64,000 nucleotides of DNA from an uncultured Verrucomicrobia subdivision 3 bacterium (GCA_903912925.1 CAIWJG010000631.1:3004-67003); one strand, 5' to 3'. Counted from the first letter of the stretch, positions 1-41,578 are shown. Made by a program: numbers and translations. Notes: generated by a model from the sequence alone, not told the origin.

Positions 1-2
1 AC

Positions 3-1125: not shown

Positions 1126-1402
1126 CAGGGCTACTCTAAAGTCCGGCCAGTTGAGGGAAGATCATGTTCTGCAGCCCTGGAATCCGAAGACCGAAGGCCG
1201 AAATCCGAAGCCCGAAGGATCTCAACATCGAACATCGAACATCGAACATCCAACATCGAACATCCAACGGCGGCGGCGGCTCCCTTTCAGGTATTGGATG
1301 TTGGATGTTGGATGTTCGATGTTCGATGTTTCCTTCTTCGCCCTTCTTCGGTCTTCGGGTTTCGGGTTTGGAATGGCCCGTGCCGACTTTAGAGCAGCCC
1401 TG
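1126..1402. repeat. Hairpin element H1: ~277-bp imperfect palindrome with microsatellite arms
   Basis: Outer stem cagggctactctaaagtccggc (1126-1147) pairs with gccgactttagagcagccctg (1382-1402). Middle arms are ccgaag-type units (~1180-1218) against cttcgg-type units (~1332-1371). Inner arms are aacatcg/aacatcc 7-mers (~1224-1268) against ggatgtt/cgatgtt 7-mers (~1294-1330). GC-rich loop cggcggcggcggctccctttcagg. Confidence 0.85.
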
Positions 1403-2638: not shown

Positions 2639-2653
2639 CACGGCGTCAAGAGC

Positions 2654-3157: not shown

Positions 3158-3163
3158 GAATTG

Positions 3164-3321
3164 GAGTAACTGTTCAGGTGTGGGGCAGACCTCCGGTCTG
3201 CCGGTTCACGGAGTCTCTGACTCCGTGCCCATCGGGTCGCCGGAACACCGGGCCAGAGGCCCGGCTAACCGGCAGACCGGAGGTCTGCCCCACATTCTGA
3301 CCTGAACAGTTACCGCTCTCC
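3164..3321. repeat. Compound palindromic intergenic element (multi-stem, ~158 bp)
   Basis: ggagtaactgttcaggtgtggggcagacctccggtctgccggtt (3164-3206) is mirrored by aaccggcagaccggaggtctgccccacattctgacctgaacagttaccgctctcc (3267-3321). Nested small hairpins: cacggagtctctgactccgtg and ccgggccagaggcccgg. Confidence 0.8.
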
Positions 3322-3344
3322 ATGAACCCTGGCTCAACAGACTG

Positions 3345-3387
3345 CCCCCTCACCCCGACCCTCTCCCCCTCGGCGGGGGAGAGGGAG
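3345..3387. repeat. Short GC hairpin repeat (ccctcacccc...ctctccccctcggcgggggagag)
   Basis: Stem ctctcccc/ggggagag around a tcggc loop. A related ccccctcaccc...gggtgaggggg hairpin occurs at 30556-30605. Confidence 0.6.
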
Positions 3388-3509
3388 ACATGCGGACAGT
3401 GGTCGAGAATGCGGACGCGCTTGCCTCCACCAACGCACGGCGGGGTGAGGGGTCCGTTTTGGCAATGGGGTTTATGGTCTCTCTGTGCGCTGAGAGCAAG
3501 GAGGAGGCT

Positions 3510-4892
3510 ATGACAACCTTCCCCACCACGCTGACCGCCCTCAAATCAAGCGGGACCTTATTCACTCCGGACCGCCCCATCCGCTACAGCCGCGCGCCCG
3601 GCCGACTCGACCTGATGGGGGGTAACGATGATTACACCGGAGGACTGGTCTTTGAAGCGACGATTCGCGAAGCCACCTGGGCGGCGGTGCAGTTGCGCGG
3701 GGATCGCCGGATTGTATTTCTCAACCCGCAGATGAAGGAGCGGGGATGGCAGGACCGCACTGAGTTCTCGCTCGATGACCTCACAGCGGATGACGCGGTG
3801 CGCGCGCTGGTGAACCGTGATCCTGGGGTCCGGTGGACCGCTTACGTGCTGGGCTTGTTCCATCTGCTGCAAAAGCGGTTCCCGCAGCAAGTGCAAAATG
3901 GAGCCAGCGTTTACATCGAGTCGGATGTGCCGCTCAACAAGGGCGTCAGCTCGTCCGCTTCGGTTGAAGTGGCGGTGATGAAGGCGGCGGTGGGAGCCTA
4001 CGGCATCAACCTCGCGGGCGTTGAGCTCGCCGAAGCTTGTCAATGGGTGGAGAATGTCATCGCCGAATCCGCCTGCGGGATTATGGATCAGATCACCGTG
4101 GTATTGGGGGACGAGGGTTGTATCCTGCCATTGCTATGCCAGCCTTGTCTGCCGCGCCCGCTCGTGCAACTGCCGGAAGGGCTCGCCTGTTGGGCGGTGG
4201 ATTCCGGCGTCAGCCATATGGTCTCCGGCATCGAATATGAGGCCGCACGCGCCGGCGCATTCATGGGCTACAAGCTGATCTGCGATTGGGAAGGACTACC
4301 GGTGCAGCTTGATGAGTCGGGCCAAATCCCCCGCTGGACGGACTCGCGCTGGAACGGCTACCTCGCCAACCTGTCCCCTTCCCTCTTTCGCGCGCGCTAC
4401 GAACCGCGCTTGGCCGAGACGATGACCGGCGCCGAATACCTGCGCGATGGCCAGATCCATGTGGATCCCTTCACTCGTATGCGCCCGGAGGTGACCTACC
4501 GTGTCCGCGCCTGCACCCGCTACGCGGTCGAGGAAAACTTCCGCGTGAACCTGTTCGCCGAACTGGCGCGGGGCGGAGTCGGGTTCGAGCAGATGGGCGA
4601 CCTGATGTATCAATCCCATCATGGCTACACCGAATGCGGCCTGGGATGCGAGGCCACCGATCTGCTGGTGGAGCTTGTTCGTGAGGCGGGGGCAGCGAGC
4701 GGGCTGTTCGGCGCGAAGGTCACCGGCGGCGGTGCGGGTGGGACTGTGGCGGTGCTCGGCCGCAAGGACGCGAGGCCGGCCTTCGACCATGTTGTGAGCC
4801 ACTACGCGGAAGCCCGTGGTATTGCGCCCTACGTCTTTGAAGGCAGTTCGATGGGCGCGGATCAGTTCGGCATCAAGACCCTGGAACCTTGA
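3510..4892 (+). CDS. GHMP-family sugar kinase (galactokinase / arabinokinase-like)
   Basis: ATG 3510 is preceded by aaggaggaggct. Galactokinase-type signature GRLDLMGGNDDYTGG, GHMP motif PLNKGVSSSASVEVAVM, and C-terminal AKVTGGGAGGTVAVLG. Confidence 0.85.
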   Translation: MTTFPTTLTALKSSGTLFTPDRPIRYSRAPGRLDLMGGNDDYTGGLVFEATIREATWAAVQLRGDRRIVFLNPQMKERGWQDRTEFSLDDLTADDAVRALVNRDPGVRWTAYVLGLFHLLQKRFPQQVQNGASVYIESDVPLNKGVSSSASVEVAVMKAAVGAYGINLAGVELAEACQWVENVIAESACGIMDQITVVLGDEGCILPLLCQPCLPRPLVQLPEGLACWAVDSGVSHMVSGIEYEAARAGAFMGYKLICDWEGLPVQLDESGQIPRWTDSRWNGYLANLSPSLFRARYEPRLAETMTGAEYLRDGQIHVDPFTRMRPEVTYRVRACTRYAVEENFRVNLFAELARGGVGFEQMGDLMYQSHHGYTECGLGCEATDLLVELVREAGAASGLFGAKVTGGGAGGTVAVLGRKDARPAFDHVVSHYAEARGIAPYVFEGSSMGADQFGIKTLEP

Positions 4893-4895
4893 CCT

Positions 4896-5846
4896 ATGGA
4901 GAACGCCGCCCCACCGCCTGCCGCCAAGTCGAAGTCCCGAGCGCTCTGGTTCTTCTTGCTGCTCGCCCTGGTGAACCTGATGTGGGCCGCTCAGGGCACA
5001 GCGGTCAAGTTCCTCGAAGGCAAGCTTGGCCCGATAGCCATCACCTTCCTGCCGTTCTATGTGACGACGCTGCTCTTCGTCCCGTTACTGATGCGCGAGC
5101 GCCGACGCAGCCCGGGAGCCGCTGCCCTCACCCGCGCCGACTGGCTCCGATTTGCTGCCGCCGGGATTGGCGGGCAGGTCCTGGCTCAGCTTGGCATGAC
5201 CTGGGGCATCACCAAGTCCCTCGCTTCCAATGCTGCCATCCTCAACCTGCTCATCCCAGTGCTGACGGCGGTGCTCGCCTCGTTCATGCTGCGCGAGCGG
5301 GTCACCCGGCTGCGGGTGGCCTGTCTCATCGTGGGGTTGGCAGGGGTATTTCTGTTGTCCGTCCAGGACCTCAAGCAAAGCTCGTTCCTGCAATCGAATT
5401 ACCTCGCCGGAAACCTGCTCATCCTCGCGGGGTGCCTGGGCTCCGCCTTCTACAACGTTTACTGCAAAGGGCTGCTCCAGCGGTTTCAGGAAATCGAGAT
5501 CCTCATCTTCAGCTATGTAACGGCCTCGATCGCGAGCGTGCCGCTGCTCATCTGGGCTGAGCCGTTCCACTTTGCACAACTGGCCGCGCTGGACTGGCGC
5601 GGCTGGCTGGCCTTCGCCTTCCTGGCGATCTTCATGTACGGTCTTTCGATGGTGCTGTTCTTCTACGTCTTGCAGCACTTGCCCGTGACGGTCGCCTCCG
5701 CATCGCTCTACCTCGTGCCGGTGTTTGGCATCCTGATTGCCGCCGCTTTCCTGGGAGAACGTCTGACGCCGGTGGCTTTCGTTGGCACAGGCGTCGTGCT
5801 CCTTTCTACCATCATCATCATGAAATGGGACAAGAGCGCCGTATGA
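4896..5846 (+). CDS. EamA/DMT-family transporter
   Basis: About 10 hydrophobic helices with two EamA-like halves. N-terminus ALWFFLLLALVNLMWAAQGTAVKF. Confidence 0.85.
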   Translation: MENAAPPPAAKSKSRALWFFLLLALVNLMWAAQGTAVKFLEGKLGPIAITFLPFYVTTLLFVPLLMRERRRSPGAAALTRADWLRFAAAGIGGQVLAQLGMTWGITKSLASNAAILNLLIPVLTAVLASFMLRERVTRLRVACLIVGLAGVFLLSVQDLKQSSFLQSNYLAGNLLILAGCLGSAFYNVYCKGLLQRFQEIEILIFSYVTASIASVPLLIWAEPFHFAQLAALDWRGWLAFAFLAIFMYGLSMVLFFYVLQHLPVTVASASLYLVPVFGILIAAAFLGERLTPVAFVGTGVVLLSTIIIMKWDKSAV

Positions 5847-5873
5847 GCGCCCGCGGTTGGCGGCGCGGCGAAG

Positions 5874-6503
5874 TCAACTCTTGAGCCGATGCTGTCGCAG
5901 CAGGGTGGGATAATCATGTCCCTTGTCCCGGGCAGCCAGAAGAATCTTCGCGCAAGCCTGAGCATCGGAGACCGCATCGTGATGCTTGAGCGGAATGCTC
6001 AAGTGCCGGCACACGTGCGCCAGGGTGGTGGGACGCAGGCCCCAAACGGAGCGTGCCAATCGGACCGTACACAGGTAGCTATTCGGAGCGGGAAAGATTC
6101 CGGCGCTTTCGCAACAGGCACGCAACACAGAGCGATCAAACGAGGCGTTGTGGGCAGCGACGAAATCCACCCCCTGCAGCACGCTGGAAATCTCGGGCCA
6201 TAGCTCCGCAAATGTCGGCTTGTGCTGCACATCCCGCCAGGTAATGCCGTGAATGTAGGTAAACACAAAATGAGACCGTGGCGGCCGAACCAGGCTGCTC
6301 CAGGTTTGCACGAGGGTGCCATCTTCGACCAGCACGATTGATAAAGCGCATGCGCTGTCGCGTCCCATGTCCGCCGTTTCAAAATCAATGGCCGCAAACC
6401 GCGCGGGACGCGGTGGGGATGGGGAATCGCCCGGAGGCAAGTCCGGCTTGGCCGCGTGGGGACAAGCGGCATGACTGGGTTGGACGGGTTCCGAGCTGAC
6501 CAT
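5874..6503 (-). CDS. DEDDh 3'-5' exonuclease (DnaQ / epsilon-like)
   Basis: Exo motifs FAAIDFETADMG, AHNASFDRSVL and HHDAVSDAQACAKI. ATG at 6503 is preferred over the TTG at 6554 used by the track. Confidence 0.8.
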   Translation of the reverse strand: MVSSEPVQPSHAACPHAAKPDLPPGDSPSPPRPARFAAIDFETADMGRDSACALSIVLVEDGTLVQTWSSLVRPPRSHFVFTYIHGITWRDVQHKPTFAELWPEISSVLQGVDFVAAHNASFDRSVLRACCESAGIFPAPNSYLCTVRLARSVWGLRPTTLAHVCRHLSIPLKHHDAVSDAQACAKILLAARDKGHDYPTLLRQHRLKS

Positions 6504-6610
6504 CCCGCCATCATATCCCAGCCAGCTTCTTACGTTCAAGCCTGCGAAGCACAAGTTGTTCGTTAATTCTTCTCAATTGACGCCAGATTCGCCATGATTC
6601 GCTGTTGCTT

Positions 6611-8041
6611 ATGACAAAGCGTTTCTTTCTTTCCGTAGTCGCAATTCGCCTCGCCACGAGTTCCGCGCTCACGCCCCTGCTCGCCGCGGAGCTGGAGAAA
6701 GAGCCGGTCGCCCTCGGCACACGCGTGGAGATGTTTGTGGACGATTGGCTCATTGATGCAGGCCGCTCGCCCGGCACGGTATCGCTGCAACTGACCCCGC
6801 CCGTAAAGCGCGAGATTGTGCTCGTGACCGACAAGCCGTGGGAAGGGCCGGACAGCGCGTATTTCAGCGTATTCCAGGACGGCCCGCTGGTGCGGCTTTA
6901 CTATCGTGGCATTGTTCCGGCGGGTGACACCTCCATCGGGCAGGTCACTTGCTACGCGGAAAGCACCGATGGGATTCATTTCACCCGGCCTAACCTGGGG
7001 TTGGTTGAATTCGAGGGCTCGAAGGAGAACAACATCATTTACCGGGGCATCGAGGCACACAACTTCGCGCCGTTCCGCGATGCCAATCCGGCGGCCCGAC
7101 CGGAAGAGCGTTACAAAGCGATGGCCGGCATCCAGAGCAAACTCTACGCCTTCGTTGCCCCTGACGGCATCCACTGGACAAAGCTGCAAGCTGACCCGGT
7201 GATGACCAAAGGCGCGTTCGATTCGCTCAACCTATCCTTCTGGGACGACCGGACCCAGAACTACCGCTGCTTCTCCCGGCATTTCGAAGAGGGGGTGCGG
7301 GCTATTCAGAGTTGCACCTCCACGGACTTCATCCACTGGGCCGACCCGGTGCCTAATCGCTACCCCAAGCGCGCGCCGAAGGAGCACTTCTACACCAACG
7401 GCACGCGCCCCTGCCCCGGCGCGCCGCACATCTACCTGTCGTTCCCGAAACGCTTCGTGCCGGAGCGCAAGAAGTTCGCCGACTACAAAGAGATAGGCGT
7501 ATCCGACGCGGTGTTCCTGAGCAGCCGCGACGGGGAGAACTGGGACCGCACGTTTCTGGAAGCCTGGGTGCGCCCCGGCCCGGACAACCGCAACTGGACG
7601 CAGCGCAGCAACATGCCCGCCTGGGGCATCGTGCAACTCGATCCAACGGAGTTCTCGATGTACATCACCGAGCACTACGAATGGCCCGACCACCGGCTGC
7701 GCCGCATCACCGTGCGCCGACACGGCTTTGCTTCTGCACATGCCAGTGCGGCGGGCGGCGAATTCACAACGCGACCTGTGACGTTTACCGGGAAGAATCT
7801 GATACTGAATTACGCGACCTCAGCCGCGGGCGCGATCCAGGTCGAGGTGCAGGACGCGCACGGCAAGCCCATCGAAGGCCGGTCGCTTGCCGACATGCCG
7901 GTGCTGTTCGGCGACGAACTGGACGCGGTCGTCAGTTGGAAGTCTGGCAGCGACCTGTCCAGCCTTATCGGCAAGCCGGTGCGCTTCCGATTTGTCATGA
8001 AAGACGCTGATCTATTTGCTTTGAGAACTGGAACATTATGA
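6611..8041 (+). CDS. Secreted beta-propeller glycoside-hydrolase-like protein (GH32/43-clan-like fold, family not assigned)
   Basis: ATG 6611 gives the signal peptide MTKRFFLSVVAIRLATSSALTPLLAA. LFVDDWLID-type N-terminus and a C-terminal beta-sandwich-like part (NLILNYATSAAGAIQVEVQD...VRFRFVMKDADLFAL). CDS confidence is high; function confidence is low. Confidence 0.75.
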   Translation: MTKRFFLSVVAIRLATSSALTPLLAAELEKEPVALGTRVEMFVDDWLIDAGRSPGTVSLQLTPPVKREIVLVTDKPWEGPDSAYFSVFQDGPLVRLYYRGIVPAGDTSIGQVTCYAESTDGIHFTRPNLGLVEFEGSKENNIIYRGIEAHNFAPFRDANPAARPEERYKAMAGIQSKLYAFVAPDGIHWTKLQADPVMTKGAFDSLNLSFWDDRTQNYRCFSRHFEEGVRAIQSCTSTDFIHWADPVPNRYPKRAPKEHFYTNGTRPCPGAPHIYLSFPKRFVPERKKFADYKEIGVSDAVFLSSRDGENWDRTFLEAWVRPGPDNRNWTQRSNMPAWGIVQLDPTEFSMYITEHYEWPDHRLRRITVRRHGFASAHASAAGGEFTTRPVTFTGKNLILNYATSAAGAIQVEVQDAHGKPIEGRSLADMPVLFGDELDAVVSWKSGSDLSSLIGKPVRFRFVMKDADLFALRTGTL

Positions 8042-11000
8042 TTGCTGCACGAACGAACCAAGTGGGGAGAACATCCAACAACCAACATCGGCCGAACACC
8101 GAACATCGAACATCCAACATCCAACATCCAACGTCGAACATCCAACGGACGATTCCTGCCCCATCAGTGGGTGTTGGGTGTTCGAGGTTGGATGTTAGAT
8201 GTTTCCAGATCGTAATTGGTCTTATTGTGTTGCTCACAGCCGCGGCTGCTAGCCGAGGTGCGCAGCTAGACTTCCCGCCGCTCTGGCAGACCGACCTGCA
8301 GACGTTCCTGGAAAGCTCCGGGCTCGTCGCCGACCTCAAAGGCGACGGCCATGAGCGAGCGGTCATTGCGGGACGCGAGGATATGTTCGCCCTCGACGGC
8401 CAGGGGAAGGTGTTGTGGCGCTGGCGGTCCAAAGGACGCTTTATGACATACCCGGCGGTGCTGGTTCGCCCACCGCAGCCGTCCCTGGTTTACGCAGCGG
8501 ACAACAGCGGCTTGCTTACCTGCCTGGACGGAACGGGCAAGGAGGTTTGGCATGCGAAGTTGAATGCGCCGTCGAGCTGGTCCGCTTCTGTCGTTTGCGA
8601 TCTCAAGGGCAATAACGATGCTGATGTCATTCAGACCGACGAGACGGGCACGGTCTGGGCCTTCGAGGCGTTGACCGGCAAAGTGCTATGGCAGACGAAG
8701 CTCAAGGGCATACCCGTCAGCCCGGCGGTTGGCGACCTGGACGGTGATGGCAAGCCGGAGATCGTGGTGGCTACTGGGCAAGGAATCATCACAGCCCTCG
8801 GCGGCAACGGCACGGTGCTATGGGAGCGGACGATCGGCGGGTCGTCCCAATCCTGGGCCACCGCGGCGCCCGTCATCTTTGCTGGATCTGATGGGCGCGG
8901 TCGCGTGGCGGCTGCCTCAAGCGGCGGCCAACTCGTGTGCCTCGATGGCAAGGGCGAGGTATTGTGGCGCCGTCCAACTCATGGCGCGGCGGCTAGCTCG
9001 ATTTCCGTGGGTGATCTCGACCTGGATGGCCGGGCGGATATTTGTCTGATCACCCAAGCCGGCGTGATCTATCGCTTTGATGAAGACGGACGCGCAATCT
9101 GGGAGATTGACATGCAGGGCCGGAGCCTGGCACCCGGTGCGATCATCGACCTAGACGGCGATGGAAAGCCGGAATACGTGCTTAGCACGCAGGATGGCTT
9201 CTTGCAGGTCCTGAACGAAGCGGGCGAGTTCCTCTACCGCTTCCACTTCAGCAATCGCACAATCAATGTAACGCCAACCTTTGGCAACCTATCGGCGGAT
9301 TCGCCGGGGCTGGAAATGCTCATAACGGGCGGCGAAGCAGGCATTGTGTTCTGCTTACACACGCCGGCGGCAACCAACGCCGTCGCGCAGTGGAAGTCTT
9401 ATCGCGGCGACGTGCGCAACAGCGGTTCGTGGTTTGGCCTGCGGCAGTCGGGCGCGGTCCGGATCTCGCCGGTGAATCTGGCCGCCGATGAGGTGCTGAG
9501 CGGCCAGAGCCTGCGGTTCACGGTCGAGAATCCCCAGACGGAGCGGCATCCGCTCACCGCCACAGCCGTCTGCGTCCGTCCCGACGGCGCGAGGCAGGTC
9601 ACGACCACAACCGTGCTGGGCCGGAGCGGCGAGCTGCTGATGCCGTTGGATGTCACCGCGCCGGGCACCTACCAATTCAGTTGGACCTTGGCCGACGCAG
9701 GCGGGCGCACGCTGGTATCCGGCGGTCGGTCGCTGTTTCTTCAGCCGTTTGCCAACGACCGCGCGCTCGTCACGCGCGCGCTGGCTGCGCTCCGCGCGGC
9801 GGCGGAAGCAACAGATCCAGTGCTTCCACTTTCCGCCACGGCGCTTCGGCACGAAGCGACATCGCTGGAAGAGCGAGCCCGAGCGGTCGCCTCGCTTCAA
9901 GACTCCCTGCCCGGCAGCGGCGTAACCGGTTCGCAGGTCGTCCTGGATAAGTCAGCGGCGCTGGTTTCGCACGCCAAGCGGGCGCTGGCAGTCGCTGGTG
10001 TGATTCACCAGGCGACGGCCCTTGGTCAAGGCACAAGCCTGGTCGCTTTCCAGGGGACGCTATGGGAGAACCGGAAGGTGGACGAACAACTGCCCGCCCA
10101 GGCGGCCAACCCGCTTCGCATCACCCGCAAGGTGGTTCCCGGCGAGCATGAACCGGTCAGCTTGAACCTGTTCAACGTAACCGACCATGAGTTGCTGGTG
10201 CGCGTGCAGTTCCATGCTCTGACCAACGGGGTTGTGGTGGTTCCGCATCGGGCGGTGGGGGTGCCCACGTCTTTGGGTGAGGTCGCCTGGGACGCGATGC
10301 CCGAGTTGGACGAGAGCGGCACGCTGACCATCCCGTCCCTGGCCAGCCGGGAATTATGGCTGGATGTGGACCTGGGCGCCGCGAAACCGGGCAGCCACCA
10401 GGTCAAACTGCGTTTGCAGGCGCTCAACGGCGCGGGCGTGCTGGATGCGCCGACGCATCCTCACTCTGTGCCGCCGCCGGAGACTGCGATTGAAATTACG
10501 CTCCAGGTTGCCGACTTTGCTATGGCCGCGCCGGGTGATTTCCGCCTTTGCACGTGGGCCGCGCCGGAGGCAGCGCAACTGCCCGACCTGCTTGCCCACG
10601 GGAACAATGTCTTCACCGCTTCATTGCCTGCAGCGAAATATGACGCTCAGGGTCACTTGGCCGCGTCTGACTACAACGCGCTGGACCCGGTGTTGAGCAG
10701 GCTGCGAGGGAAGGATGTGGTGCTGATGTTGATGGGGATTCCCAGCCTGCACGGCGAATCCGGCAGCGCGGCTTATCGAGGCGACTTGAAGATATTCCTG
10801 GATGAGCTGGTGACACACATGGCGGGGGCGGGCTTCGATATAAAGCATTTTGCGCTGTATCCGTTTGACGAGCCGGGCGGTGTCGGTTGGACGCTGGTCA
10901 ATCCACTAGTCGAGTTCGGGAAGCAGGTCCGCGCGATCAACCCCGACCTGATGCTGTATGTGGACGGCGGGGGCGAGCTTCCCATGTTCCAGGCGATGGC

Positions 11001-19722: not shown

Positions 19723-20673
19723 TCAGGCTGCGGCAGGTGCCGGGTGATGGTTCGCGACCAGCTTGTCAACGCCGGCCTTCAACTCCGGCAGGCAGCTCTC
19801 AACCCGTGCGCGCTCCTCGGCGCGGAACCGGTGGAACGGTTCGGCCATGAAATCATCGCAAATCCCCTGGCACGCCAAGGCGCACTTGATTCCTTTGATG
19901 ATCGACGAAGAGTAGCGCCCGATACGGTAGAGCGACTGGCTGATCTGCATGACCTGGGCATGGAGTAGCTCTGTCCGGGGGAGATCGCCCGCGCGGGCGG
20001 CCTGGTAAAGCTGGACGTAGAGTTTGGGGAAGAGGTTTGCTCCCCCGTTGACGCCGCCGTGACCGCCAGCGAGGACGGTTTCAGCGAGGCGTTCTTCCGG
20101 CCCTACGAGCAGCGTCCAGTCGGGGCGGTGCTGCAACAAGGCGAGGGCCTCCTTGAAGTAGGTCATGTTGTTTGAGCTGTCCTTAAGACCGACGATACGC
20201 GGTATATCCATCGCGCGGCGCAAGCACTCCATCTCGTATTGCACTTTGGTCAGGCCGGGCATGTTGTAGAGGAACAGCGGGAGAGGCAGTTCGGCCGCCA
20301 AGTGCTCCACGTATTCTTGCATCTCCGGCTGACCTGGCGGGAGGTAATAGGGCGGCGCCAGCACCAGCGCGTCGGCGCCGGCATCAGCAGCATGACGGGC
20401 CAGATTCAAGGATTCAACAAAGGCGGTATCCGTGATGCCGACCAGCACGGGCACCCGCCCCCGGACCTGCCGGCAGGCCAGCGTAATCAGCTCCCGACGC
20501 AGACGGTAGCTCAGGCTCGGCCCCTCCCCGGTCGTGCCGAGGATAAAGAGGCCGCTCACGCCGCCGTTCACGATATGCTCAATGAGACGTTCCGCCCCCG
20601 CTACATCCAACTCATCCCGCGCGCGCAGCGGCGTCACCATCGGCGGGACCACACCAGTCAAAGGTAATTTCAC
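19723..20673 (-). CDS. DapA/NanA-family class I aldolase (dihydrodipicolinate synthase / N-acetylneuraminate lyase family)
   Basis: VPPMVTPL, ILGTTGEGPSLS, LYNMPGLT and the Schiff-base lysine context IVGLKDSS. Confidence 0.85.
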   Translation of the reverse strand: MKLPLTGVVPPMVTPLRARDELDVAGAERLIEHIVNGGVSGLFILGTTGEGPSLSYRLRRELITLACRQVRGRVPVLVGITDTAFVESLNLARHAADAGADALVLAPPYYLPPGQPEMQEYVEHLAAELPLPLFLYNMPGLTKVQYEMECLRRAMDIPRIVGLKDSSNNMTYFKEALALLQHRPDWTLLVGPEERLAETVLAGGHGGVNGGANLFPKLYVQLYQAARAGDLPRTELLHAQVMQISQSLYRIGRYSSSIIKGIKCALACQGICDDFMAEPFHRFRAEERARVESCLPELKAGVDKLVANHHPAPAAA

Positions 20674-20950
20674 AATTTAATCAGTAGTTCTTCAGGCGCT
20701 TGCTGAACGCGCGGGAACTCATAGGTCACCCACACGGCTTGCACGCTCAGGAGTATGCCAGAGAACCCAGGGGCCAGCGTTCAAGATATTCCACTGGACA
20801 GAATCAAAAGAATCCATGTCGCCTGGAATCTCGCCTGGAATCTCGCGTGTTGACGGTGGGATACAACTCCATACCATGTCTGCGATTGGATGTTGGCTGT
20901 TTCTGAGGTTCATGGGCAGGCGTCCGGGAACGGCCAACTATCCTGACAAA

Positions 20951-32514: not shown

Positions 32515-33159
32515 TCACCGCAGGAATTTTGCCACGGCCGCCGCCTGCGAGTGCACCTGCAGCTTTTCGTAAATGCGGCGCAGGTAGGTTTGAATGGTCG
32601 TAGCGCTGAGGCCCAGATCCACCGCCACTTCTTTGATCCGTTTGCCATGAGCAATCAGCGTCAAGACTTCGACTTCCCGTTCCGTCAGCAGGTTGGCTTT
32701 GGCCGAAGGTTTAGCCTGGCCGTGAAACGACTCGACGACGCGGCGCGCGATGACCGCGGACATCGGGGAGCCGCCCTGCACCACCAATTGAATTCCCTCG
32801 ACGATCTCGGCTGGCGTGGCCGTCTTCAACAAGTAACCGGCGGCCCCCCCTCGCAAGGCCGCGAAGACCAGGTCGCTGTCCTCCTCAATCGTCAACATGA
32901 CCACCTGGCCAGCCGGGCATAGCCGCTTCAGTTCACCCGTGCATTCGATCCCCGACATCCCTGGCAGATTCAGATCCATCAGGACAACCGCCGGCGCTGC
33001 CTTCGGGATTTCGCGCAGCGCTTCTTCGCCCGTGGCGTACATGCCGACGCATTCAATGCCGGGTGTCAGATCGAGTATAGCGGCCAAGCCGCGGCGAAAA
33101 GCCACTCGGTCTTCAACAACAGCAATACGAATCGGACTGGGCGGGCTGGAGGGATTCAT
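32515..33159 (-). CDS. NarL/LuxR-family response regulator
   Basis: Receiver domain IRIAVVEDR...VVLMDLNLPGMSG. HTH domain LTEREVEVLTLIAHGKRIKEVAVDLGLSATTIQTYLRRIYEKL. Confidence 0.95.
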   Translation of the reverse strand: MNPSSPPSPIRIAVVEDRVAFRRGLAAILDLTPGIECVGMYATGEEALREIPKAAPAVVLMDLNLPGMSGIECTGELKRLCPAGQVVMLTIEEDSDLVFAALRGGAAGYLLKTATPAEIVEGIQLVVQGGSPMSAVIARRVVESFHGQAKPSAKANLLTEREVEVLTLIAHGKRIKEVAVDLGLSATTIQTYLRRIYEKLQVHSQAAAVAKFLR

Positions 33160-33181
33160 GGAATCAAAAGGGGCGATATAG

Positions 33182-36067
33182 CTAAGTTTGATGCAGAGGC
33201 ATTAGAATGGAAACCGAGGTGCCGGTGCCAGGTTTCGTCGTAATCTCCAGCGACCCACCAACCTGCTGGACGCGCTCGCGGAGGTTCTGCAAGCCGCTGC
33301 CCGCGATGGTTCGCGCTGGATCGAAGCCGCGCCCGTCGTCTTTGACGGTGAGGTTCAGTTGCCCGTCGTTCAGTCTTAAGCCAACGGTGACCTCGCGCGC
33401 CCCGGCATGTTTGGCAACGTTGGCCAGCGACTCCTTCACCACGGCCAGCAATTCATGCCGCACGCGAGCGGGCACCTCAACCGAACTTTCGCCGGCGGGC
33501 AAGTCCAGCCGGCATTCCAGGCCGGCCGCCTGACAAAATCGTTCGGTCAATTCGCCGATGAACGCTACCAGGCTGCCGGTGTTGTCGCAGCGCGGATTGG
33601 TCGTCCACGCCAGCTCGCGCAACTCGTGCGCCAGCGACCGTGTCTCGCCGGCCAGGCTCTCAAGCTGCCCGGACGCAGCGCTGCCGCGGCGCTGAGCGGC
33701 CTCGAGCTGCAGCGCCAGGCCGGTGAGGCTGGCGCCCAGGTCGTCGTGCAGATCCCGGGCGATACGAGCCCGCTCTTCCGCCAGTACGGTGACCTGCTGG
33801 GCGCGCAGGGTGCGCCCTTGCCAGCGGAGCCGGTAAGCTTGCACGCCCCCTGCGGTGCCGATAACGAGCGCGGCGCACAGGACGTAAAAGGCCCACGTTT
33901 CGTAAAAGTGCGGCGCAACGTAAAACGAGAACTGCTCGCCTTGCTCGTTCCAAACGCCGTGCGAGTTGCAAGCCGCGACGCAGAAGGTGTAGTCGCCGGG
34001 GCGGAGGTTGGTATAGAACGCCACCCGGCGGTTTTGGTCATCCTCAAGCCAGTCCGCGTCGTAGCCCTCGAGCCTATACTTGAAGCGCACCCGCTCGGGC
34101 GCCGCGAGACTGTCGGCCGTGTAATGAATTTCCAGCACCCGCCCCCGCCCCGGCCTGATCTGCATTCGAGGTTGGATGTTCGATGTTGGATGTTCGATGT
34201 TCTTGCCCCCGCCCGCGCATCCATCCCCAAACACCACTTCCCCATTCGCCCGCACCTGCTCAATCACCACCGGCGACGCCAATTCCGCGCTCTGCATTTC
34301 CTTGGGATCAATCATCACGACGCCCTGCACAGTGGGAAACCAAATCCGCCCCTGCTGGTCCTTGCAACCGGCGGGCTGATTGTCCCCGCCATTGCACTCG
34401 CTGTTCAGCATCCCATCGGCCTCCCCGTAAGCGGTGCACTCCACCCTGGCCCGCCGCCCGGCCGCCACCTCGTTCAGTTGCTGCCGCGAAATGCGGTAAA
34501 TGCCGCGCAACCCGCTCAGCCAAAGATAGCCGAAATCATCCTCCTGGATGTTATTCACCACGTTCTCGCCCAATCCCTGCTCCTTCGTGAAGGTGAAGAA
34601 CCGCCGCTCGTTCTCCCCCGCCTGCCCATTTCTACTTTCTGCTTTCTGCTTTCTGCTTTGTTCAGCCCCTGCGGGCACAAACCGGTTCAGGCCGTCCTCC
34701 GTGCCCACCCAGAAAACCCCATCAGTGTCCTCATGAATCCACCACGCACGGTTATTGTGCTCGCCGCGGTTGGTTTTGTAGGCCGTGAATCTTCCATCCT
34801 TGAGGCGATTCAGCCCGCCGCCATAAGTCCCAAACCACATGTCCCCACGCCGGTCCTGATAGATAGCGCGCGCGTCACCGTGAGAAAGCCCCTGGTTGGT
34901 GGAATAGCTGCTCCACTGCTCACCATCCCGGCACAGCACTGCGGTCCTGATGCCAAGCCATATCCGGCCCTGCCGATCCTCGAACAGAGCCTTAAGGTCC
35001 TGCCCATCCCCTATTTCTCCCGGGGCGGGCAGCATCTGCCATTCCCCGCCTCGGAAACGCGCCAAGTGAGGGCCCGGCCAGGCTACCCATACCGCGTCGT
35101 GCCGGTCGGCCAGGAACACCCCGATCCGGCCCCACTCCCTGCCCTCCTGCGGGGCTTTCACATTCTCCACTTTCCCTGCTCGAATGCCGCTGAGGCCCGC
35201 GGCCGTCCCCACCCAACTCGTGCCGTCGGTGCCCTGGGTGACCGCTTGCGTGTCATCGTTCCGCAACCCCTCACGCCGTGAATACGCTCTGATCCGCTTC
35301 GGCTCCAACCGGAACAGCCCGGTCGTCGTCCCCACCCAAAGATCCCCTTCGCGATCTTCCAGCACGCGGGTGACATTCAGATCCTCGGGAAACTCAGGCG
35401 CCGCAAAAGGCTCCAGCCGCCCCTGAATCAGCCGGTGCAAGCCAGTGTGGCCGCCCTCGAGACGACGAGTGACCCATACCCGGCCATCGCTGGTCCGGCA
35501 AATCCGCTGTTGCCAGGGCCTTGATTCCAGGCCCGCGCTCGCCACCACTGTCCAGACGCCCTTGCTGCCCCGCCAGATGCTGGTGCCGGTGCAGAGCCAG
35601 AGCGAGCCGTCGGCCGCCCCAAGAAACGAAAAGCACGACGAGAGATCCGTGGACGGCACCTCCGGCGGGCTGAGCGAGGTCAACGACTTCGTGTTCAAAT
35701 CCAGCCGCTGAAGGCCACCCCCTACAGCCGCCCCCCCGAGCAGGACCAGCAGTCGTGAGGAACTCTCCTCGCCCAACTGCCTTACAGGATACTCACTGCC
35801 CGCCGAACCGAACGTCCAGGTTTGCACCCGCCCCCCGCGCGCCAGCGCCACCCGGCCTGCCTGCGGCGAGAACCAAACGCCGCCCGCCCGAGCCGCGCAG
35901 AGCGGACCAACCGGATCAGTCACCCCCCCTTCCGCCTCATAGCGCTCGAACCGATGATCGCGGTAATACAACAAGCCGTCGCCGGCACCGATCCACAAGC
36001 TGCCATCCTTCTGGTCCACCGCCAGATCGTTAAAACCGTTCCCGACACCGTGCCATCGCTCTTCCAC
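33182..36067 (-). CDS. Sensor histidine kinase: Reg_prop beta-propeller repeats + Y_Y_Y + TM + HisKA_3 + HATPase_c (5' end apparently displaced by a frameshift)
   Basis: Repeated DG.LW.GT..GL motifs. Y_Y_Y segment RPGDYTFCVAACNSHGVW. TM segment WAFYVLCAALVIGTAGGV. H-box ARIARDLHDDLGASLTGL. ATPase segment DDGRGFD...GSGLQNLRERV. The track ORF starts at a GTG directly after a TGA and has no N-terminal signal or TM segment. Confidence 0.9.
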   Translation of the reverse strand: MEERWHGVGNGFNDLAVDQKDGSLWIGAGDGLLYYRDHRFERYEAEGGVTDPVGPLCAARAGGVWFSPQAGRVALARGGRVQTWTFGSAGSEYPVRQLGEESSSRLLVLLGGAAVGGGLQRLDLNTKSLTSLSPPEVPSTDLSSCFSFLGAADGSLWLCTGTSIWRGSKGVWTVVASAGLESRPWQQRICRTSDGRVWVTRRLEGGHTGLHRLIQGRLEPFAAPEFPEDLNVTRVLEDREGDLWVGTTTGLFRLEPKRIRAYSRREGLRNDDTQAVTQGTDGTSWVGTAAGLSGIRAGKVENVKAPQEGREWGRIGVFLADRHDAVWVAWPGPHLARFRGGEWQMLPAPGEIGDGQDLKALFEDRQGRIWLGIRTAVLCRDGEQWSSYSTNQGLSHGDARAIYQDRRGDMWFGTYGGGLNRLKDGRFTAYKTNRGEHNNRAWWIHEDTDGVFWVGTEDGLNRFVPAGAEQSRKQKAESRNGQAGENERRFFTFTKEQGLGENVVNNIQEDDFGYLWLSGLRGIYRISRQQLNEVAAGRRARVECTAYGEADGMLNSECNGGDNQPAGCKDQQGRIWFPTVQGVVMIDPKEMQSAELASPVVIEQVRANGEVVFGDGCAGGGKNIEHPTSNIQPRMQIRPGRGRVLEIHYTADSLAAPERVRFKYRLEGYDADWLEDDQNRRVAFYTNLRPGDYTFCVAACNSHGVWNEQGEQFSFYVAPHFYETWAFYVLCAALVIGTAGGVQAYRLRWQGRTLRAQQVTVLAEERARIARDLHDDLGASLTGLALQLEAAQRRGSAASGQLESLAGETRSLAHELRELAWTTNPRCDNTGSLVAFIGELTERFCQAAGLECRLDLPAGESSVEVPARVRHELLAVVKESLANVAKHAGAREVTVGLRLNDGQLNLTVKDDGRGFDPARTIAGSGLQNLRERVQQVGGSLEITTKPGTGTSVSILMPLHQT
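34168..34202. repeat. Half-copy of the H1/H2 7-mer array inside the kinase CDS
   Basis: gaggttggatgttcgatgttggatgttcgatgttc is translated on the minus strand as GKNIEHPTSNIQP, in frame, within the kinase. Confidence 0.85.
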
Positions 36068-36408
36068 AGTTCATATCCGCTACTTTCTTGATAGGCGGTA
36101 AAGATGATATTGGTCCGCAAAAGCTTGAATTCGGTAATATAGCCACCGCTTCGGGTTTGATTGATATCTTTGAGCAGGAAGGGGTTCGGCAGACCTTGCG
36201 ACAGCATCCCCAGGGCCGGCAGCATCCAAAGGAGGAGCACCGCCCAGAAAGAAGTGCGCGCGCTTCTTGAACCTCTCCCGGTGGAGTTTTCCTGGCTTGT
36301 GGACGCGTCCACCGCTGCCTGCGGTTCGGGTATCGCAAGCTGTGCACGGTTACAAAGCTCGCCCTTGTCACAACCTGGTGACCGCTCAAGCATTTCTTTT
36401 GATTTCAT
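35920..36408 (-). CDS. Membrane-anchored ELWxxDGT-repeat fragment; probable frameshifted 5' part of the sensor kinase gene
   Basis: TM segment FWAVLLLWMLPALGML, then LLKDINQTRSGGYITEFKLLRTNIIFTAYQESSGYELWKSDGTVSGTV (ELWxxDGT repeat). The remainder of the ORF is out-of-frame reading of the kinase 5' region (overlap 35920-36067). Confidence 0.5.
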   Translation of the reverse strand: MKSKEMLERSPGCDKGELCNRAQLAIPEPQAAVDASTSQENSTGRGSRSARTSFWAVLLLWMLPALGMLSQGLPNPFLLKDINQTRSGGYITEFKLLRTNIIFTAYQESSGYELWKSDGTVSGTVLTIWRWTRRMAACGSVPATACCITAIIGSSAMRRKGG

Positions 36409-36447
36409 ATCTTTTCGACGTTGATCCTATGGCAGGCGGTAATCCGC

Positions 36448-38331
36448 TCAGGGCTCCAAGAGCGCAACCCGGGATGCAAGGTGCAATCTGAAGGTTCCCC
36501 TCGTCACCAAGGGCGTCTTGTGCAAACCATAAATGGTTTCGGTGTAGCTGCCTCCAATCCGGTTGTCTCCCCAACCGGACAAATTCTGACTGACCAGGTC
36601 AGGATCGTCAGCCGAGAAGATAAGGGTGATGGCCCGGTTGATGGACCACGATTCGGCGGTGTAGGTCAGACCAGCGCTGTTGGTATGCGGGAGCAATGGA
36701 TTGCGTTCCGGGCGGTCGTCCCGGTTGTCGTGGTCGGGATGAAAGCGATGCACAAACGGGTTGAGCGAGTCGTCGAATGGCAGCGGCACGATGCAGGCAA
36801 GTTGATTGCCGGCATCGCCAAAGCCAGTGCCGTTCATAGGAATCGTGCCCCGGAACCCGAACGCGGCCGAACTGAACCTGCGAGCCACCGCAGTGCCATC
36901 TCGCAGCGCCGCACCCGCGAACTGCCCAACCCGGTTATCATCGGTCAGCAGCACGAAGCGCCCCGGTCGGTCCACCACGAGGTTTGTCGTCCCGTCCCCG
37001 GCCGATTTGTAAGTGCCGGGCGACCATACCTGGAGGATCTTCTGCAGCAGCCTGGCCTGGCCGCTGGCGTCCAGATGCACCATCAGCCGGAACGAGAATT
37101 CGGAGGCAGTGGGCACCGGTTCCGCGGGGTTACCCGAGCCAGGCTGATTGACCTGATTGATAGTGGCCGTGCCGACCCAGAGGCCGGCGCGCGGGGGCGT
37201 CGTGGCCGAGGCGGCCATCAGTGAACGTCCTCCCGCCAAGGCAGCGGAAGCGCTCTGGGGGCCGTAAGCGGAAACCGGAACAAGCGCGCGGGTGCCGTTT
37301 GCACTATCGGTGATTTCCAGCAGGGACTGATAGAGGCTATCGGTGGCGCCTGAGGGCGGCGTGAAAGCCGCCATTTCCCGGCGGCGCACCTCCAAACGGA
37401 GATCCCAGATGCCGCCGGGCGGCAGGTTCGATTGGACCACGCCTGAAAAGGTGATCCAGCCCACGTTGGTGAACACCGAGGAGTTCCGCCAATAACCCAT
37501 CGGCACGGGGCCAGCCAAAGCGATCCCGGAAGTGGCTGGCGGATTGGTCGAGGTCAACGGACGGATGCTAATAACCGTCGAGTTCGTGGAGACGTTACGG
37601 ATGCGGATGGTCTGCTCGGTGAGGATGCGCCCAAATTCCAACCCGGCGTGTCGATCGGTTTGGACTTCGATGGGTCCCGAGTAAGCCGGCAGTCCCCGGG
37701 TACGAGTCCAGAAGGCTTCGCCGCGTTGCATGGCCGTGGTACCCGGGCTGGTGACGCGTTGCCAGGAGCCACTGGTGAGAAGGCGGTATAGGTTGGTTTC
37801 CGAGAGCGCGCTCGAATACGAGCAGAAGGTGCGGTAGGTGGGTGGGCTCGCGGAAGGAAGAGGCGCGCCCACAAAGTTGTAGGAGTCGCGCAACCACTCG
37901 ATGGATCGTAACACCGGCTTGCCCCGAACATTCCAAGTGTTGGTGGGGGCGTTGTCAGCCATTTTGATGAGGTAGGGACGCCCGCCTTCGAGGAAATGGA
38001 GACTGGTCTGGTCCGTCAAAGGGTTACTTGGCGGCACCCAGGTCAACCAGTCCGGCTGGCTGATGACCAATTCATTTGGGTCGGCGATGAACTGCACCAC
38101 TGCCTGCCGATGGTTGTAGCGCCACACACTCTCGACCGGCAGGGAGGCGAAAGCGACATCGCAGTCGGCGGCGTCGGGCTGGACTTCCAGAAAGATCGCA
38201 TTCCAGCCAGGCCGCAAGGTGATCGGTTGATCAATCCATTGCGCAACGACCGAGCGGGCGCTAAAACCGAGCAGCCCAAGTGCCAGTGAGGGCATTAACA
38301 AGGACTTCCAAAGCTGACGGAAAGTCTTCAT
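36448..38331 (-). CDS. Secreted hypothetical protein (627 aa)
   Basis: Signal peptide MKTFRQLWKSLLMPSLALGLLGFSARSVVAQ. The ATG overlaps the upstream stop (ATGA 38328-38331). No family recognised. Confidence 0.8.
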   Translation of the reverse strand: MKTFRQLWKSLLMPSLALGLLGFSARSVVAQWIDQPITLRPGWNAIFLEVQPDAADCDVAFASLPVESVWRYNHRQAVVQFIADPNELVISQPDWLTWVPPSNPLTDQTSLHFLEGGRPYLIKMADNAPTNTWNVRGKPVLRSIEWLRDSYNFVGAPLPSASPPTYRTFCSYSSALSETNLYRLLTSGSWQRVTSPGTTAMQRGEAFWTRTRGLPAYSGPIEVQTDRHAGLEFGRILTEQTIRIRNVSTNSTVISIRPLTSTNPPATSGIALAGPVPMGYWRNSSVFTNVGWITFSGVVQSNLPPGGIWDLRLEVRRREMAAFTPPSGATDSLYQSLLEITDSANGTRALVPVSAYGPQSASAALAGGRSLMAASATTPPRAGLWVGTATINQVNQPGSGNPAEPVPTASEFSFRLMVHLDASGQARLLQKILQVWSPGTYKSAGDGTTNLVVDRPGRFVLLTDDNRVGQFAGAALRDGTAVARRFSSAAFGFRGTIPMNGTGFGDAGNQLACIVPLPFDDSLNPFVHRFHPDHDNRDDRPERNPLLPHTNSAGLTYTAESWSINRAITLIFSADDPDLVSQNLSGWGDNRIGGSYTETIYGLHKTPLVTRGTFRLHLASRVALLEP

Positions 38332-39176
38332 GGTTGGATGAAAAGGTTGTAAAATAAAGGCCCGGACGAAGGGGTGTTGGTGTCAAGAAAGCTATTCATG
38401 GGCGGGGTGCCCGCGATATTGCTGCGGATTATGCTGAAACTGCCAGGCAGTAAAGTGGCCGAGCGCAGCAGGGTGTAGGAGCGACCTTCGGCGCTATTCC
38501 ACTGAACTTCGAATCCGCCCTGGGGTTGACGGGAATACTTGATGAAGTGGAATACCGAGTTGGGGTCGTTGGGATCGGTACCCGCAATGAACTCCTGGAG
38601 GTTGGTCATGCCATCGCCATCTTCATCGTCACCCGGCCGGTGGCCAATGCCGCCAAAGTAAAGGTCTTCCCACCAGTCGCACAGCCCCAAGCCGTCCGAG
38701 TCTTGGCACGGGGCGTTGATCAAGAGATCCACTCGCTCGATGACGCCGCGGTTTCGGGCGGCGAGGGATGTGGCGGCCTGGCCTGGAGTCGCGAAGGAAA
38801 CCTGCAGGCCATCCAGGGTGACCTGCGAGCGGTCGTACGTTAATGAGGAGGGAAGCAATTCCAGGGAGTTGCTGGAAACCGACGCCCCGGAGAGAACCGT
38901 TTCGCAAGGCACAAGCAGTAAATACGAGAACTGCCCCGACACGTTGCCGAGGGTGTTTGTCAGGGTGATAGTACGCCCCGTATCCTGTCGGCGGAATCGC
39001 CAAATAAGGGTGCCGGAAGTGATGCGAGCGTTGTATGCTGCTGTGTTACGGATCATACCGTAAAGAACCAAGTTGGGTTCGGGGAGACCCTCGCTCCATC
39101 CGATCTGGCAGAGCATGGAGAGCCCCAGTAACAAGGCGTGTGGGTTGGCTGAAAGAAGGCTGGATGGCGTTTTCAT
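38328..39176 (-). CDS. Secreted hypothetical protein with thrombospondin-type-3-like Ca-binding motif
   Basis: ATG 39176 gives MKTPSSLLSANPHALLLGLSMLCQIGWS. Motif GDDEDGDGMTNLQEFIAGTDPNDPNS. C-terminal FEVQWNSAEGRSYTLLRS beta-sandwich-like tail. Confidence 0.8.
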   Translation of the reverse strand: MKTPSSLLSANPHALLLGLSMLCQIGWSEGLPEPNLVLYGMIRNTAAYNARITSGTLIWRFRRQDTGRTITLTNTLGNVSGQFSYLLLVPCETVLSGASVSSNSLELLPSSLTYDRSQVTLDGLQVSFATPGQAATSLAARNRGVIERVDLLINAPCQDSDGLGLCDWWEDLYFGGIGHRPGDDEDGDGMTNLQEFIAGTDPNDPNSVFHFIKYSRQPQGGFEVQWNSAEGRSYTLLRSATLLPGSFSIIRSNIAGTPPMNSFLDTNTPSSGPLFYNLFIQP

Positions 39177-39499
39177 AGAAGTTTGAGTTTCAGGTGACGA
39201 GCCGGGTTCTCGACCCATTTTGGAGAACAAAGGGGACTGCTTTCGTGAAAAAGGTGTGTTCTTGTCCTTGCCAGGCAGGGGGACACAAATTCCCGCAGCG
39301 ACTCCTGGCAATTATGCTCCCGCGCTGCGTCGAACCGTTCCAACGCGAGAGCGGTAAGGCTCACGAGCAATCGGGTGAAGCTGGCGGTTTCCTCGCCGCT
39401 GTTGCCCGCCGCCGACAGCACCAGGTTGACCGGCAGGCACGGTCTTTCTTCGCTTGGTGACCCGAGTGGTCGCTCGGCAAGCTGATCAACAGACATCAT
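39173..39499 (-). CDS. Possible small leader protein (~108 aa), unknown function
   Basis: Its TGA overlaps the ATG of the next gene (ATGA 39173-39176). The central part has GC-rich third positions. The 3' third contains regulatory-looking motif A, and the start (ATG 39499/39496 or GTG 39523) is unclear. Confidence 0.35.
   Translation of the reverse strand: MMSVDQLAERPLGSPSEERPCLPVNLVLSAAGNSGEETASFTRLLVSLTALALERFDAAREHNCQESLREFVSPCLARTRTHLFHESSPLCSPKWVENPARHLKLKLL
39221..39293 (-). promoter_or_regulatory. Three-box palindromic motif, copy A (GAGAACAAAG / GTTCTTGTCC / GGGGACACAAA)
   Basis: tggagaacaaaggggactgctttcgtgaaaaaggtgtgttcttgtccttgccaggcagggggacacaaattcc aligns without gaps with copy B over the first 47 nt (about 34 of 47 identical by hand count). 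Lies ~45 nt upstream of ATG 39176. Confidence 0.55.
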
Positions 39500-39546
39500 G
39501 CGGTTGGTTCTACCATCTGACACCCAGGCTCCGGTAGTCTCATTCT

Positions 39547-39614
39547 AGAGGACAAAACGGGGTGGTTTTATGAAAAAGGGACGTTTTTGTCCCTCATTTA
39601 GGGGACAAAACGCG
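39547..39614 (-). promoter_or_regulatory. Three-box palindromic motif, copy B (GAGGACAAAAC / GTTTTTGTCCC / GGGGACAAAAC)
   Basis: tagaggacaaaacggggtggttttatgaaaaagggacgtttttgtccctcatttaggggacaaaacgcg. Boxes 2 and 3 form a near-perfect inverted repeat with a 7-nt spacer. Lies just upstream of the small ORF start. Confidence 0.6.
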
Positions 39615-39731: not shown

Positions 39732-39763
39732 CCATAGCGCCCCCATAGCGCCCCCATAGCGCC
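39732..39763. repeat. 11-bp tandem repeat ccatagcgccc x3
   Basis: Three consecutive units at 39732-39742, 39743-39753 and 39754-39763. An inverted partial copy ggcctatggcgctc lies at ~39804. Confidence 0.9.
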
Positions 39764-39837
39764 TGGCTTGCTGCAAAGCGCCCCTCTATTCTGAGTTGAG
39801 GGCGGCCTATGGCGCTCTGCTGGCAGGGTGGATTCGG

Positions 39838-41354: not shown

Positions 41355-41578
41355 GAGGCCCCCGGGGCTGCTCTAAAGTCCGGCCAGTTGAGGGAAGATC
41401 CTGTTCTGCAGCCCTGAAATCCGAAGACCGAAGGCCGAAATCCGAATTCCGAGAATGGCCTGATTCGATTGGCTGCTGCTCCGCCGGGGTGGCTATCAAT
41501 TCGGACCTCGGCCTTCGGATTTGAGCACTGCTCGCTGGGAACGGGAGGACCTTAGAACAGCCCTGGGAGGCCCCTGCC
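41355..41578. repeat. Hairpin element H4 (shares the outer module with H1 and another module with H5)
   Basis: 41371-41446 matches 1134-1209 at 74 of 76 nt (hand count). Inner palindrome aaatccgaagaccgaaggccgaaatccgaattc...gaattcggacctcggccttcggattt. The right module 41527-41565 is the reverse complement of 46059-46097. Confidence 0.85.

Follow-up and report, generated by a model that had tools for sequence, protein, structure and literature searches.

Tc (ABC) toxins, among them Photorhabdus TcdA1/TcdB2/TccC3, YenTc and Serratia SepABC, have been studied both as insecticides and as programmable protein injectors, and the shell of YenTc also bears extra subunits (chitinases) that are not TcA proteins. 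The fold of the A component is marked by an alpha-helical shell, a translocation channel built from long helices and a C-terminal TcB-binding domain (PMC6795518). In a genome survey published in 2021, 96% of Tc loci were found in Proteobacteria and 3% in Firmicutes (PMC7861908). The locus described here, which in its complete form probably encodes a divergent system of this type, was recognized in a stretch of 64,000 nucleotides from an uncultured Verrucomicrobia subdivision 3 bacterium (GCA_903912925.1, CAIWJG010000631.1:3004-67003; hereafter ‘the window’), where a block of about seven kb on the minus strand (32515 to 39523) holds a small open reading frame (ORF), the genes for two secreted proteins (P2 and P3), a sensor kinase and a response regulator.

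That block is the scar of a deletion of approximately 17.6 kb within a larger co-directional locus. The complete, intact order is present on a single 28.4-kb contig, SESF01022043.1 (GCA_005795915.1, retrieved as loci L010 and L008), and runs from a sulfatase gene through a 108-residue ORF, P2, P3, a giant protein (3299 residues) and an SpvB/RHS protein (2363 residues) to a kinase (1101 residues) and the regulator. Measured against that contig, the deletion removed the entire SpvB/RHS (BC) gene, left no more than 124 codons of the giant (A) gene and cut 135 codons from the 5' end of the kinase; P2, P3 and the regulator are intact but orphaned. With its A and BC genes deleted, the window is unlike Tc loci; the comparison with Tc toxins that follows is one of the intact locus and its homologues.

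The giant protein and its likeness to TcA

The giant protein consists of N-terminal ELWxxDGT repeats followed by a conserved core of about 1800 residues. In an intact homologue the repeat is matched about 10 times over the N-terminal ~900 residues; in the window, where codons 1-124 alone remain (36037 to 36408), the product retains a long N-region, a hydrophobic signal-like segment and the first ELWxxDGT repeat. The N-termini vary among loci, being composed of ELWxxDGT, SBBP, FG-GAP_2 or Laminin_G_3 repeats, and conservation of the core between phyla amounts to 60-84% in each block of 50 residues.

The C-terminal 1153 residues of one homologue, P0164, were modelled with AlphaFold2 (AF2) from an alignment of 50 sequences. 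The resulting model (predicted local distance difference test, pLDDT, 71.7) comprises a helical region, long helices of 93, 44 and 113 residues, and a C-terminal alpha/beta domain, so that the features of the TcA fold given above are all represented in it, in a region of the homologue that is deleted in the window. When the model was compared with the PDB using Foldseek, the top 19 matches were all TcA chains (TcdA1, XptA1, XptA2, TcdA4, YenTcA and TcaA-TcaB); ranks 1 to 18 were returned with a probability of 1.00 and E-values of 1e-7 to 6e-5 over 935-1070 columns, and rank 19 with a probability of 0.97 (E = 4e-3, 616 columns). The next match had an E-value of 0.06, and generic coiled coils had values above 0.7. 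As predicted, the C-terminal ~1150 residues of the giant thus match TcA structures only, and at the level of this model a TcA-like fold is shown for the core. The giant and the Tc toxins are also linked by a collinear, remote profile match: in hhalign comparisons with genuine TcA genes gathered from plasmids, the full giant alignment was matched over 1277 collinear columns with a probability of 69% (E = 4e-5).

The gene context points in the same direction. In Verrucomicrobiota loci, the gene that follows the giant has the full TcB/TcC domain set, ending in a variable C-terminal cargo; in the intact haplotype it encodes a fused TcB/TcC-type protein of 2363 residues with SpvB, an FG-GAP propeller, TcdB_midN, a YD/RHS shell, an Rhs core and a C-terminal cargo of about 190 residues, and it is absent from the window. 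On two contigs that carry this gene (L008 and L004), TcdB_toxin_midN scored 118.9, FG-GAP_3 86 and RHS_repeat 72 bits, YD_repeat_2x was present, and the Rhs_assc_core (1748-1847) was followed by the ~190 residues of cargo; SpvB is on record for the complete 2363-residue product. The B and C components are fused here, unlike those of the Tc (ABC) complexes named above.

Taken together, the fold, the weak homology between profiles and the surrounding genes are best explained by a divergent system of the Tc (ABC) toxin type, a reading of the locus that we regard as probable. In such a system the giant protein would form the membrane-penetrating A component (presumably acting by pentameric injection), the RHS protein would be a toxin-carrying BC ‘cocoon’, and P2 and P3 would be exported beta-sandwich partners of the A component, which might decorate the shell, bind receptors or act as assembly factors, akin to the chitinases on the TcA of Yersinia entomophaga.

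A number of observations weigh against this reading. The giant goes undetected by TcA sequence models (such as VRP1, neuraminidase-like and TcA_TcB_BD) and has no match in Pfam, NCBIfam or the sequences of the PDB. The Foldseek template modelling (TM) scores are low (0.16-0.22), and the model is one of medium confidence that covers the homologue’s C-terminal 1153 residues and not the whole protein. When the C-terminal alignment was compared with the TcAs by hhalign, it reached a probability of 37% and a score of 48.6, with reversed and block-shuffled controls scoring lower, at 19-36. Unlike classical TcAs, which have no signal peptide, the giant has a signal peptide as well as variable propeller-repeat N-termini; unlike the classical Tc loci that were inspected, where P2 and P3 have no counterpart, the two proteins are near-obligate partners here, and their matches are to generic beta-sandwiches alone, so that the roles suggested for them are guesses. 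In most Gammaproteobacteria and Acidobacteriota loci no BC gene is seen within about 10 kb, and in this respect the majority of TcA-like loci from outside the Verrucomicrobiota differ from Tc loci. Within the window, finally, the ORF of the truncated kinase is still open, and some expression of it may occur.

Several of the same observations would suit a large extracellular protein of another kind, such as a surface adhesin, whose likeness to TcA would be limited to its long helices and for which P2 and P3 would have accessory or anchoring functions. The signal peptides on P2, P3 and the giant, the beta-propeller type of its variable N-termini (ELWxxDGT, SBBP, FG-GAP_2 and Laminin_G_3), the presence in Gammaproteobacteria of neighbouring surface proteins of the DUF11, lactonase and Calx-beta types together with a peptidyl-prolyl isomerase (PPIase), the lack of a visible BC gene at most loci and the absence of a TcA signal at the level of sequence can all be counted in its favor. 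Generic coiled coils, however, had E-values above 0.7, as against 1e-7 to 4e-3 for 19 TcA chains over 616-1070 columns. The collinear profile alignment of 1277 columns (at 69% probability), a conservation of 60-84% over an 1800-residue core across phyla, which is unusual for adhesins, and the position of a TcB/TcC gene directly after the giant in Verrucomicrobiota loci, those of this lineage included, further argue against an adhesin, which we consider an unlikely explanation.

If the Tc-like reading is extended from this locus to its homologues, a broader proposal can be made, although only tentatively: P2, P3 and the giant may constitute a branch of Tc-toxin-like injection machines that has gone unrecognised, spans phyla and occurs in at least 555 species representatives (from Verrucomicrobiota, Acidobacteriota, Lysobacterales, Hydrogenedentota, Planctomycetota and Omnitrophota), and that would use export signals instead of release by lysis, carry two obligate accessory subunits and be invisible to TcA sequence models. 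Literature searches found no description of the P2/P3/giant family. Its hosts (free-living Verrucomicrobiota, Acidobacteriota, Lysobacterales, Hydrogenedentota and others) also differ from those of the surveyed Tc loci. If the proposal is true, free-living environmental bacteria might use the machines as weapons against protists or other microbes, and the occurrence of the locus in some strains but not in others, of which the window is an example, would mark the gain and loss of a weapon at the level of strains. A very divergent TcA-like family with conserved partner proteins of its own, widely distributed among uncultured phyla of soil and freshwater, would extend the range over which Tc machines are known, would raise the question of how a TcA that bears a signal peptide is assembled, and would offer new receptor-binding modules; one cultured isolate with a P3 locus, Chiayiivirga flava DSM 24163, makes the family testable. 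The window’s own content is degraded and modest, while the family to which it points is worth follow-up.

P2, P3 and the conserved gene set

The genes for P2 (38328 to 39176) and P3 (36448 to 38331; 627 residues) are joined by an ATGA overlap at 38331-38328, and each product has a signal peptide. A secreted protein of 283 residues had been proposed at the position of P2 by the first-pass annotation of this DNA; the protein is there, with a length of 282 residues when read from the first in-frame ATG, at 39176. It is composed of an N-terminal domain (PEPNLVLYG...), a TSP3-type calcium-binding motif and a small C-terminal domain. The calcium motif, which had been noticed from the sequence alone, is borne out by a TSP3_bac match in Pfam of 22.4 bits, just below the cut-off of 25. 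That motif and the start of the small domain after it are what P2 has in common with the Amuc_1099 family (Amuc_1099_fam, NF042425; 29.4 bits with a cut-off of 50, at profile positions 125-180 of 321, which is the TSP3 region). An assignment of P2 as an Amuc_1099 pilus-like protein was ruled out by the score below cut-off, by the coverage of 56 of 321 positions and by the different genomic context.

P3 is an all-beta, multi-domain protein with invariant motifs that include HxYHPDHDN and GWGDNxxGG. Its more than 400 homologues are every one annotated as ‘hypothetical’, and none has a Pfam domain. An AF2 model (pLDDT 84.5) is likewise all-beta, with several sandwich domains, and drew only generic Ig-like or PapD-like fold matches in the PDB and BFVD; no relative of P3 was found among PDB sequences, and profile comparison revealed no resemblance of P2 or P3 to any part of classical TcA. 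The earlier impression that neither secreted protein can be assigned to a family thus stands, in that P2 and P3 belong to no described family in searches of family libraries, PDB sequences and folds. They would be conserved accessory proteins of the TcA-like system, with P3 as the partner that typifies its giant.

A scan of one genome per species (the GTDB species representatives) yielded at least 555 P3 loci in several phyla, with hosts among the Verrucomicrobiota, Phycisphaerales, Hydrogenedentota, Thermoanaerobaculia, Lysobacterales and relatives (C. flava DSM 24163 among these), and Omnitrophota. Neighbourhoods were counted in the best 80 of these loci, 55 of which have at least 9 kb of sequence downstream. 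Of the 55 informative loci, 53 have the giant core after P3 and on its strand, and RHS/TcB-like genes lie near P3 in 7 of the 80, all of them on Verrucomicrobiota-type contigs; sequences resembling a histidine kinase or response regulator (HK/RR) were found near P3 in 2 of 80. P2 homologues are encoded directly upstream of P3 in Verrucomicrobiota loci. In Gammaproteobacteria and Acidobacteriota, the protein encoded after the giant has a P2-like N-domain (hhalign probability 95.8%, E = 7e-9), fused there to Calx-beta and lactonase-type domains. The conserved set is accordingly a P2-type protein, P3 and the giant, and does not include the two-component system. Co-occurrence of the block’s genes in other genomes, to which the first-pass annotation had looked for support, was therefore found for a different combination than the one it named: P2 and P3 do belong to a conserved and undescribed multi-gene system, as had been supposed, of which the giant is a member and the kinase and regulator are not.

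Further genes accompany the set at individual loci. In Gammaproteobacteria and Acidobacteriota (L086, 1-9896, and similar loci), a second giant of about 2970 residues with DUF11 and lactonase-propeller character and a PPIase-like protein of 335 residues (SurA/PpiD-type) are encoded upstream of P3, which suggests a larger conserved neighbourhood for export or assembly. In some Verrucomicrobiota loci an extra protein of 350-550 residues is encoded, either between P3 and the giant (L002, 12011-13060) or after the giant (L001, 19031-20134); its similarity to the N-domain of Bdellovibrio mosaic adhesive trimer fibres is weak (NF053851, 29 bits, cut-off 60). In the L001 locus (1-7091) the cassette lies beside an integrase, an HNH nuclease and a helicase; in L002, a divergent sigma factor of the extracytoplasmic function (ECF) type lies beside the cassette and an orphan Rhs-core/toxin cassette after it (8335-8964 and 19776-20783). 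These two contexts suggest a mobile or variable island.

The two-component system and the deletion junction

Beyond P3, a gap of 39 nucleotides leads to the ATG (36408) of a 162-residue ORF (35920 to 36408), which has the remnant of the giant gene at its head. The 5'-truncated kinase (33182 to 36032, corresponding to codons ~136-1101 of the intact gene) follows, in a frame that is open across 33182 to 36067, and after a further 22 nucleotides there is an intact NarL/LuxR-family response regulator of 214 residues (32515 to 33159), with Response_reg and GerE domains in Pfam. All of the ORFs first drawn in the block, both ATGA overlaps and both of these gaps are present on the minus strand as described.

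The Pfam domains of the kinase (Reg_prop, 85 bits; Y_Y_Y, 62; HisKA_3, 49; HATPase_c, 46) place it among the Y_Y_Y/Reg_prop kinases that are paired with NarL/LuxR regulators (the HisKA_3 class, NarX/NarL-like). It has the same domain order of Reg_prop, Y_Y_Y, transmembrane segment, HisKA_3 and HATPase_c, with a Response_reg-GerE regulator likewise downstream, and is far under every NCBIfam equivalog cut-off. The intact homologue, of 1101 residues, begins with MLCRVFQQALWVGLAFAGLVVPAWAAA and has a typical signal peptide at its N-terminus. Unlike complete Y_Y_Y kinases, the copy in the window has lost its signal peptide, its first 135 residues and its first propeller blades, is joined out of frame to the 5' end of another gene, and possesses no in-frame start of its own except a GTG inside the giant-gene remnant; the frame is otherwise intact. 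Judged from these features, the window kinase is most likely non-functional. The regulator is identical in protein sequence between the deleted and undeleted haplotypes, its exact protein is present in 56 collection blocks, and its best NCBIfam similarities are to MctR, UvrY and NarL, all under the equivalog cut-offs. A hypervariable, low-complexity loop precedes Y_Y_Y in the kinase (residues ~593-638, window ~34155-34220) and is wholly different between the haplotypes, the intact one carrying a duplicated GQKTEVR unit; the remaining kinase is nearly identical between them.

The small ORF, P2, P3, the kinase and the regulator had at first been suggested to form a self-contained, possibly autoregulated operon for sensing and secreted proteins, in which a duplicated sequence motif at the head of the block would serve as the operator of the regulator. 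The genes are co-directional, tightly spaced and lack convincing internal terminators, the motif is repeated before the small ORF and before P2, and a two-component system lies directly downstream of the cassette in the intact haplotype too. The adjacency of P3 and the kinase, however, arises from the 17.6-kb deletion alone; HK/RR sequences co-occur with P3 in the two loci counted above, and no copy of the motif was found ahead of the P2 homologues of distant loci. Because this kinase is missing both the signal peptide and the first 135 residues, and is joined to the preceding gene in a different frame, a working sensing module is unlikely in the window, and the operon reading as a whole fails, with very little probability left to it. 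In the intact haplotype, a lineage-specific regulatory link of the two-component system to the cassette is possible; any regulation by that system, or by the head motif, is something that we infer.

The deletion itself can be followed on both sides. Five contigs (L003, L009, L010, L011 and L012) match the window at 99.2-99.3% as far as 36036 and carry the undeleted left side, and two (L004 and L008) match from 36033 onward and carry the undeleted right side. On L003, whose encoded P3 differs from that of the window by two residues, identity is 99.3% from 41518 to 36036, with divergence beyond; the ORF after P3 on that contig extends over at least 2328 residues, with ELWxxDGT repeats and further sequence. 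Alignment to both sides of the intact contig SESF01022043.1 places the junction at 36033-36036, where codon 125 of the giant is joined, out of frame, to codon 136 of the kinase; no meaningful microhomology is present at this point. Two haplotypes were also retrieved with the exact regulator protein, one in which the 1101-residue kinase follows the giant SpvB/FG-GAP/TcdB_toxin_midN/RHS protein, and one in which P3 is followed by a kinase of 961 residues.

The 162-residue ORF had been read as a ‘kinase 5' fragment’. It is no such thing, because the ELWxxDGT domain that it carries (TIGR04534, 43.5 bits, NCBIfam cut-off 65; one repeat is left in the window) is unrelated to Y_Y_Y kinases: its codons 1-124 belong to the giant ELWxxDGT-repeat gene, as identified from 99.3% identical DNA and the repeat match, and its last ~38 codons are kinase sequence in the wrong frame. 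The remnant shares 94% identity with the beginning of the giant ORF of L003. It has diverged from the intact haplotype by 3.0% (11 of 372 nucleotides, 6 amino acid changes), as against 0.35-0.8% in the flanking genes, an excess consistent with relaxed selection since the deletion or with a tract of recombination.

The same junction is present in L005, L006 and L007, from the ENA assemblies of three other samples (99.9-99.98% identity), and a fourth sample has the gene order of the deleted haplotype. Because the junction recurs in the assemblies of other samples and the undeleted sides lie on other contigs, the deletion is biological and not an assembly error. An assembly or binning chimera near 36036, which the apparently metagenomic source of the window and the tendency of giant repeat-rich and RHS genes to break assemblies (PMC7861908) might have suggested, is scarcely credible when contigs from at least three other samples and assemblers share the identical junction and match for ~10 kb to either side of it, the breakpoint has no repeat able to mislead an assembler, and the deleted haplotype is a distinct lineage that is 99.98% identical internally and ~99.3% identical to the intact one. 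For genome annotation, the lesson is that a neat, co-directional ‘operon’ can be the scar of a deletion; the 162-residue ORF and the 961-residue kinase are due to be annotated as pseudogene fragments.

The small ORF, the head motif and nearby repeats

The small ORF at the head of the block extends from 39173 to 39499 (ATG start, 108 residues) or to 39523 (GTG start, 116 residues) on the minus strand, and overlaps P2 by an ATGA at 39176-39173. Its coding signal is weak (a G+C fraction at third codon positions, GC3, of 0.62 and a codon score of -0.02), and it has no match in Pfam, NCBIfam, PHROG or PADLOC. Among 1.84 billion representatives, 21 relatives were found at E <= 1e-3, 19 of which are 97-186 residues long and possess the common core LTVNxVxPAxGDSAxExASFxRLLxxLxALALERFGAA; the remaining two are long and rich in repeats (P0266, 4991 residues, and P0269, 414 residues). 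None of the relatives occurs in the 80 P3 loci. From its sequence relatives, the small ORF is probably a real gene of a small, lineage-restricted family that lies outside the widely conserved module. P0266 aligns with the small ORF in 18 stretches, the best of them on the ORF’s N-terminal core (residues 17-52), and P0269 aligns with the ORF’s tail SPKWVENPARHL (the C-terminal part, window 39173-39260) in six, the tail resembling the tandem unit ESPGWSENPDRI of P0269; both parts of the ORF may be derived from, or translated across, repeated elements.

The duplicated three-box motif that had been reported at the head of the block is present as a 52-nucleotide direct repeat (39216-39267 and 39541-39592) whose copies are 73% identical, with further GTTTTGTCC/GGACAAAAC boxes. 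Copy A (39541 to 39612, minus strand; direct repeats D1, D4 and D6) lies ~40 nucleotides upstream of the ATG of the small ORF and contains a near-perfect palindrome, CGTTTTGTCCC-N8-GGGACAAAAACG, followed by a T-run and then by a third box, GTTTTGTCC. The corresponding RNA (39620 to 39535) folds at -23 kcal/mol (z = -3.8) into a hairpin followed by a U-run, a structure that might either terminate transcription of the upstream sulfatase gene or act as an operator. Copy B (39216 to 39290, minus strand), a degenerate three-box version, lies within the small ORF, ~40 nucleotides upstream of the start of P2, and gave no stable fold (z = +1.4).

Two further repeats lie near the sulfatase gene. Between its stop codon and the head motif, an 11-nucleotide unit, CCATAGCGCCC, is repeated three times in tandem (39732-39764), with a degenerate fourth copy at 39774. 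Upstream of the gene, a sequence of 82 bp (41365-41446) recurs 40 kb away on the opposite strand (1128-1209) with 96% identity, and may be a small dispersed repeat element.

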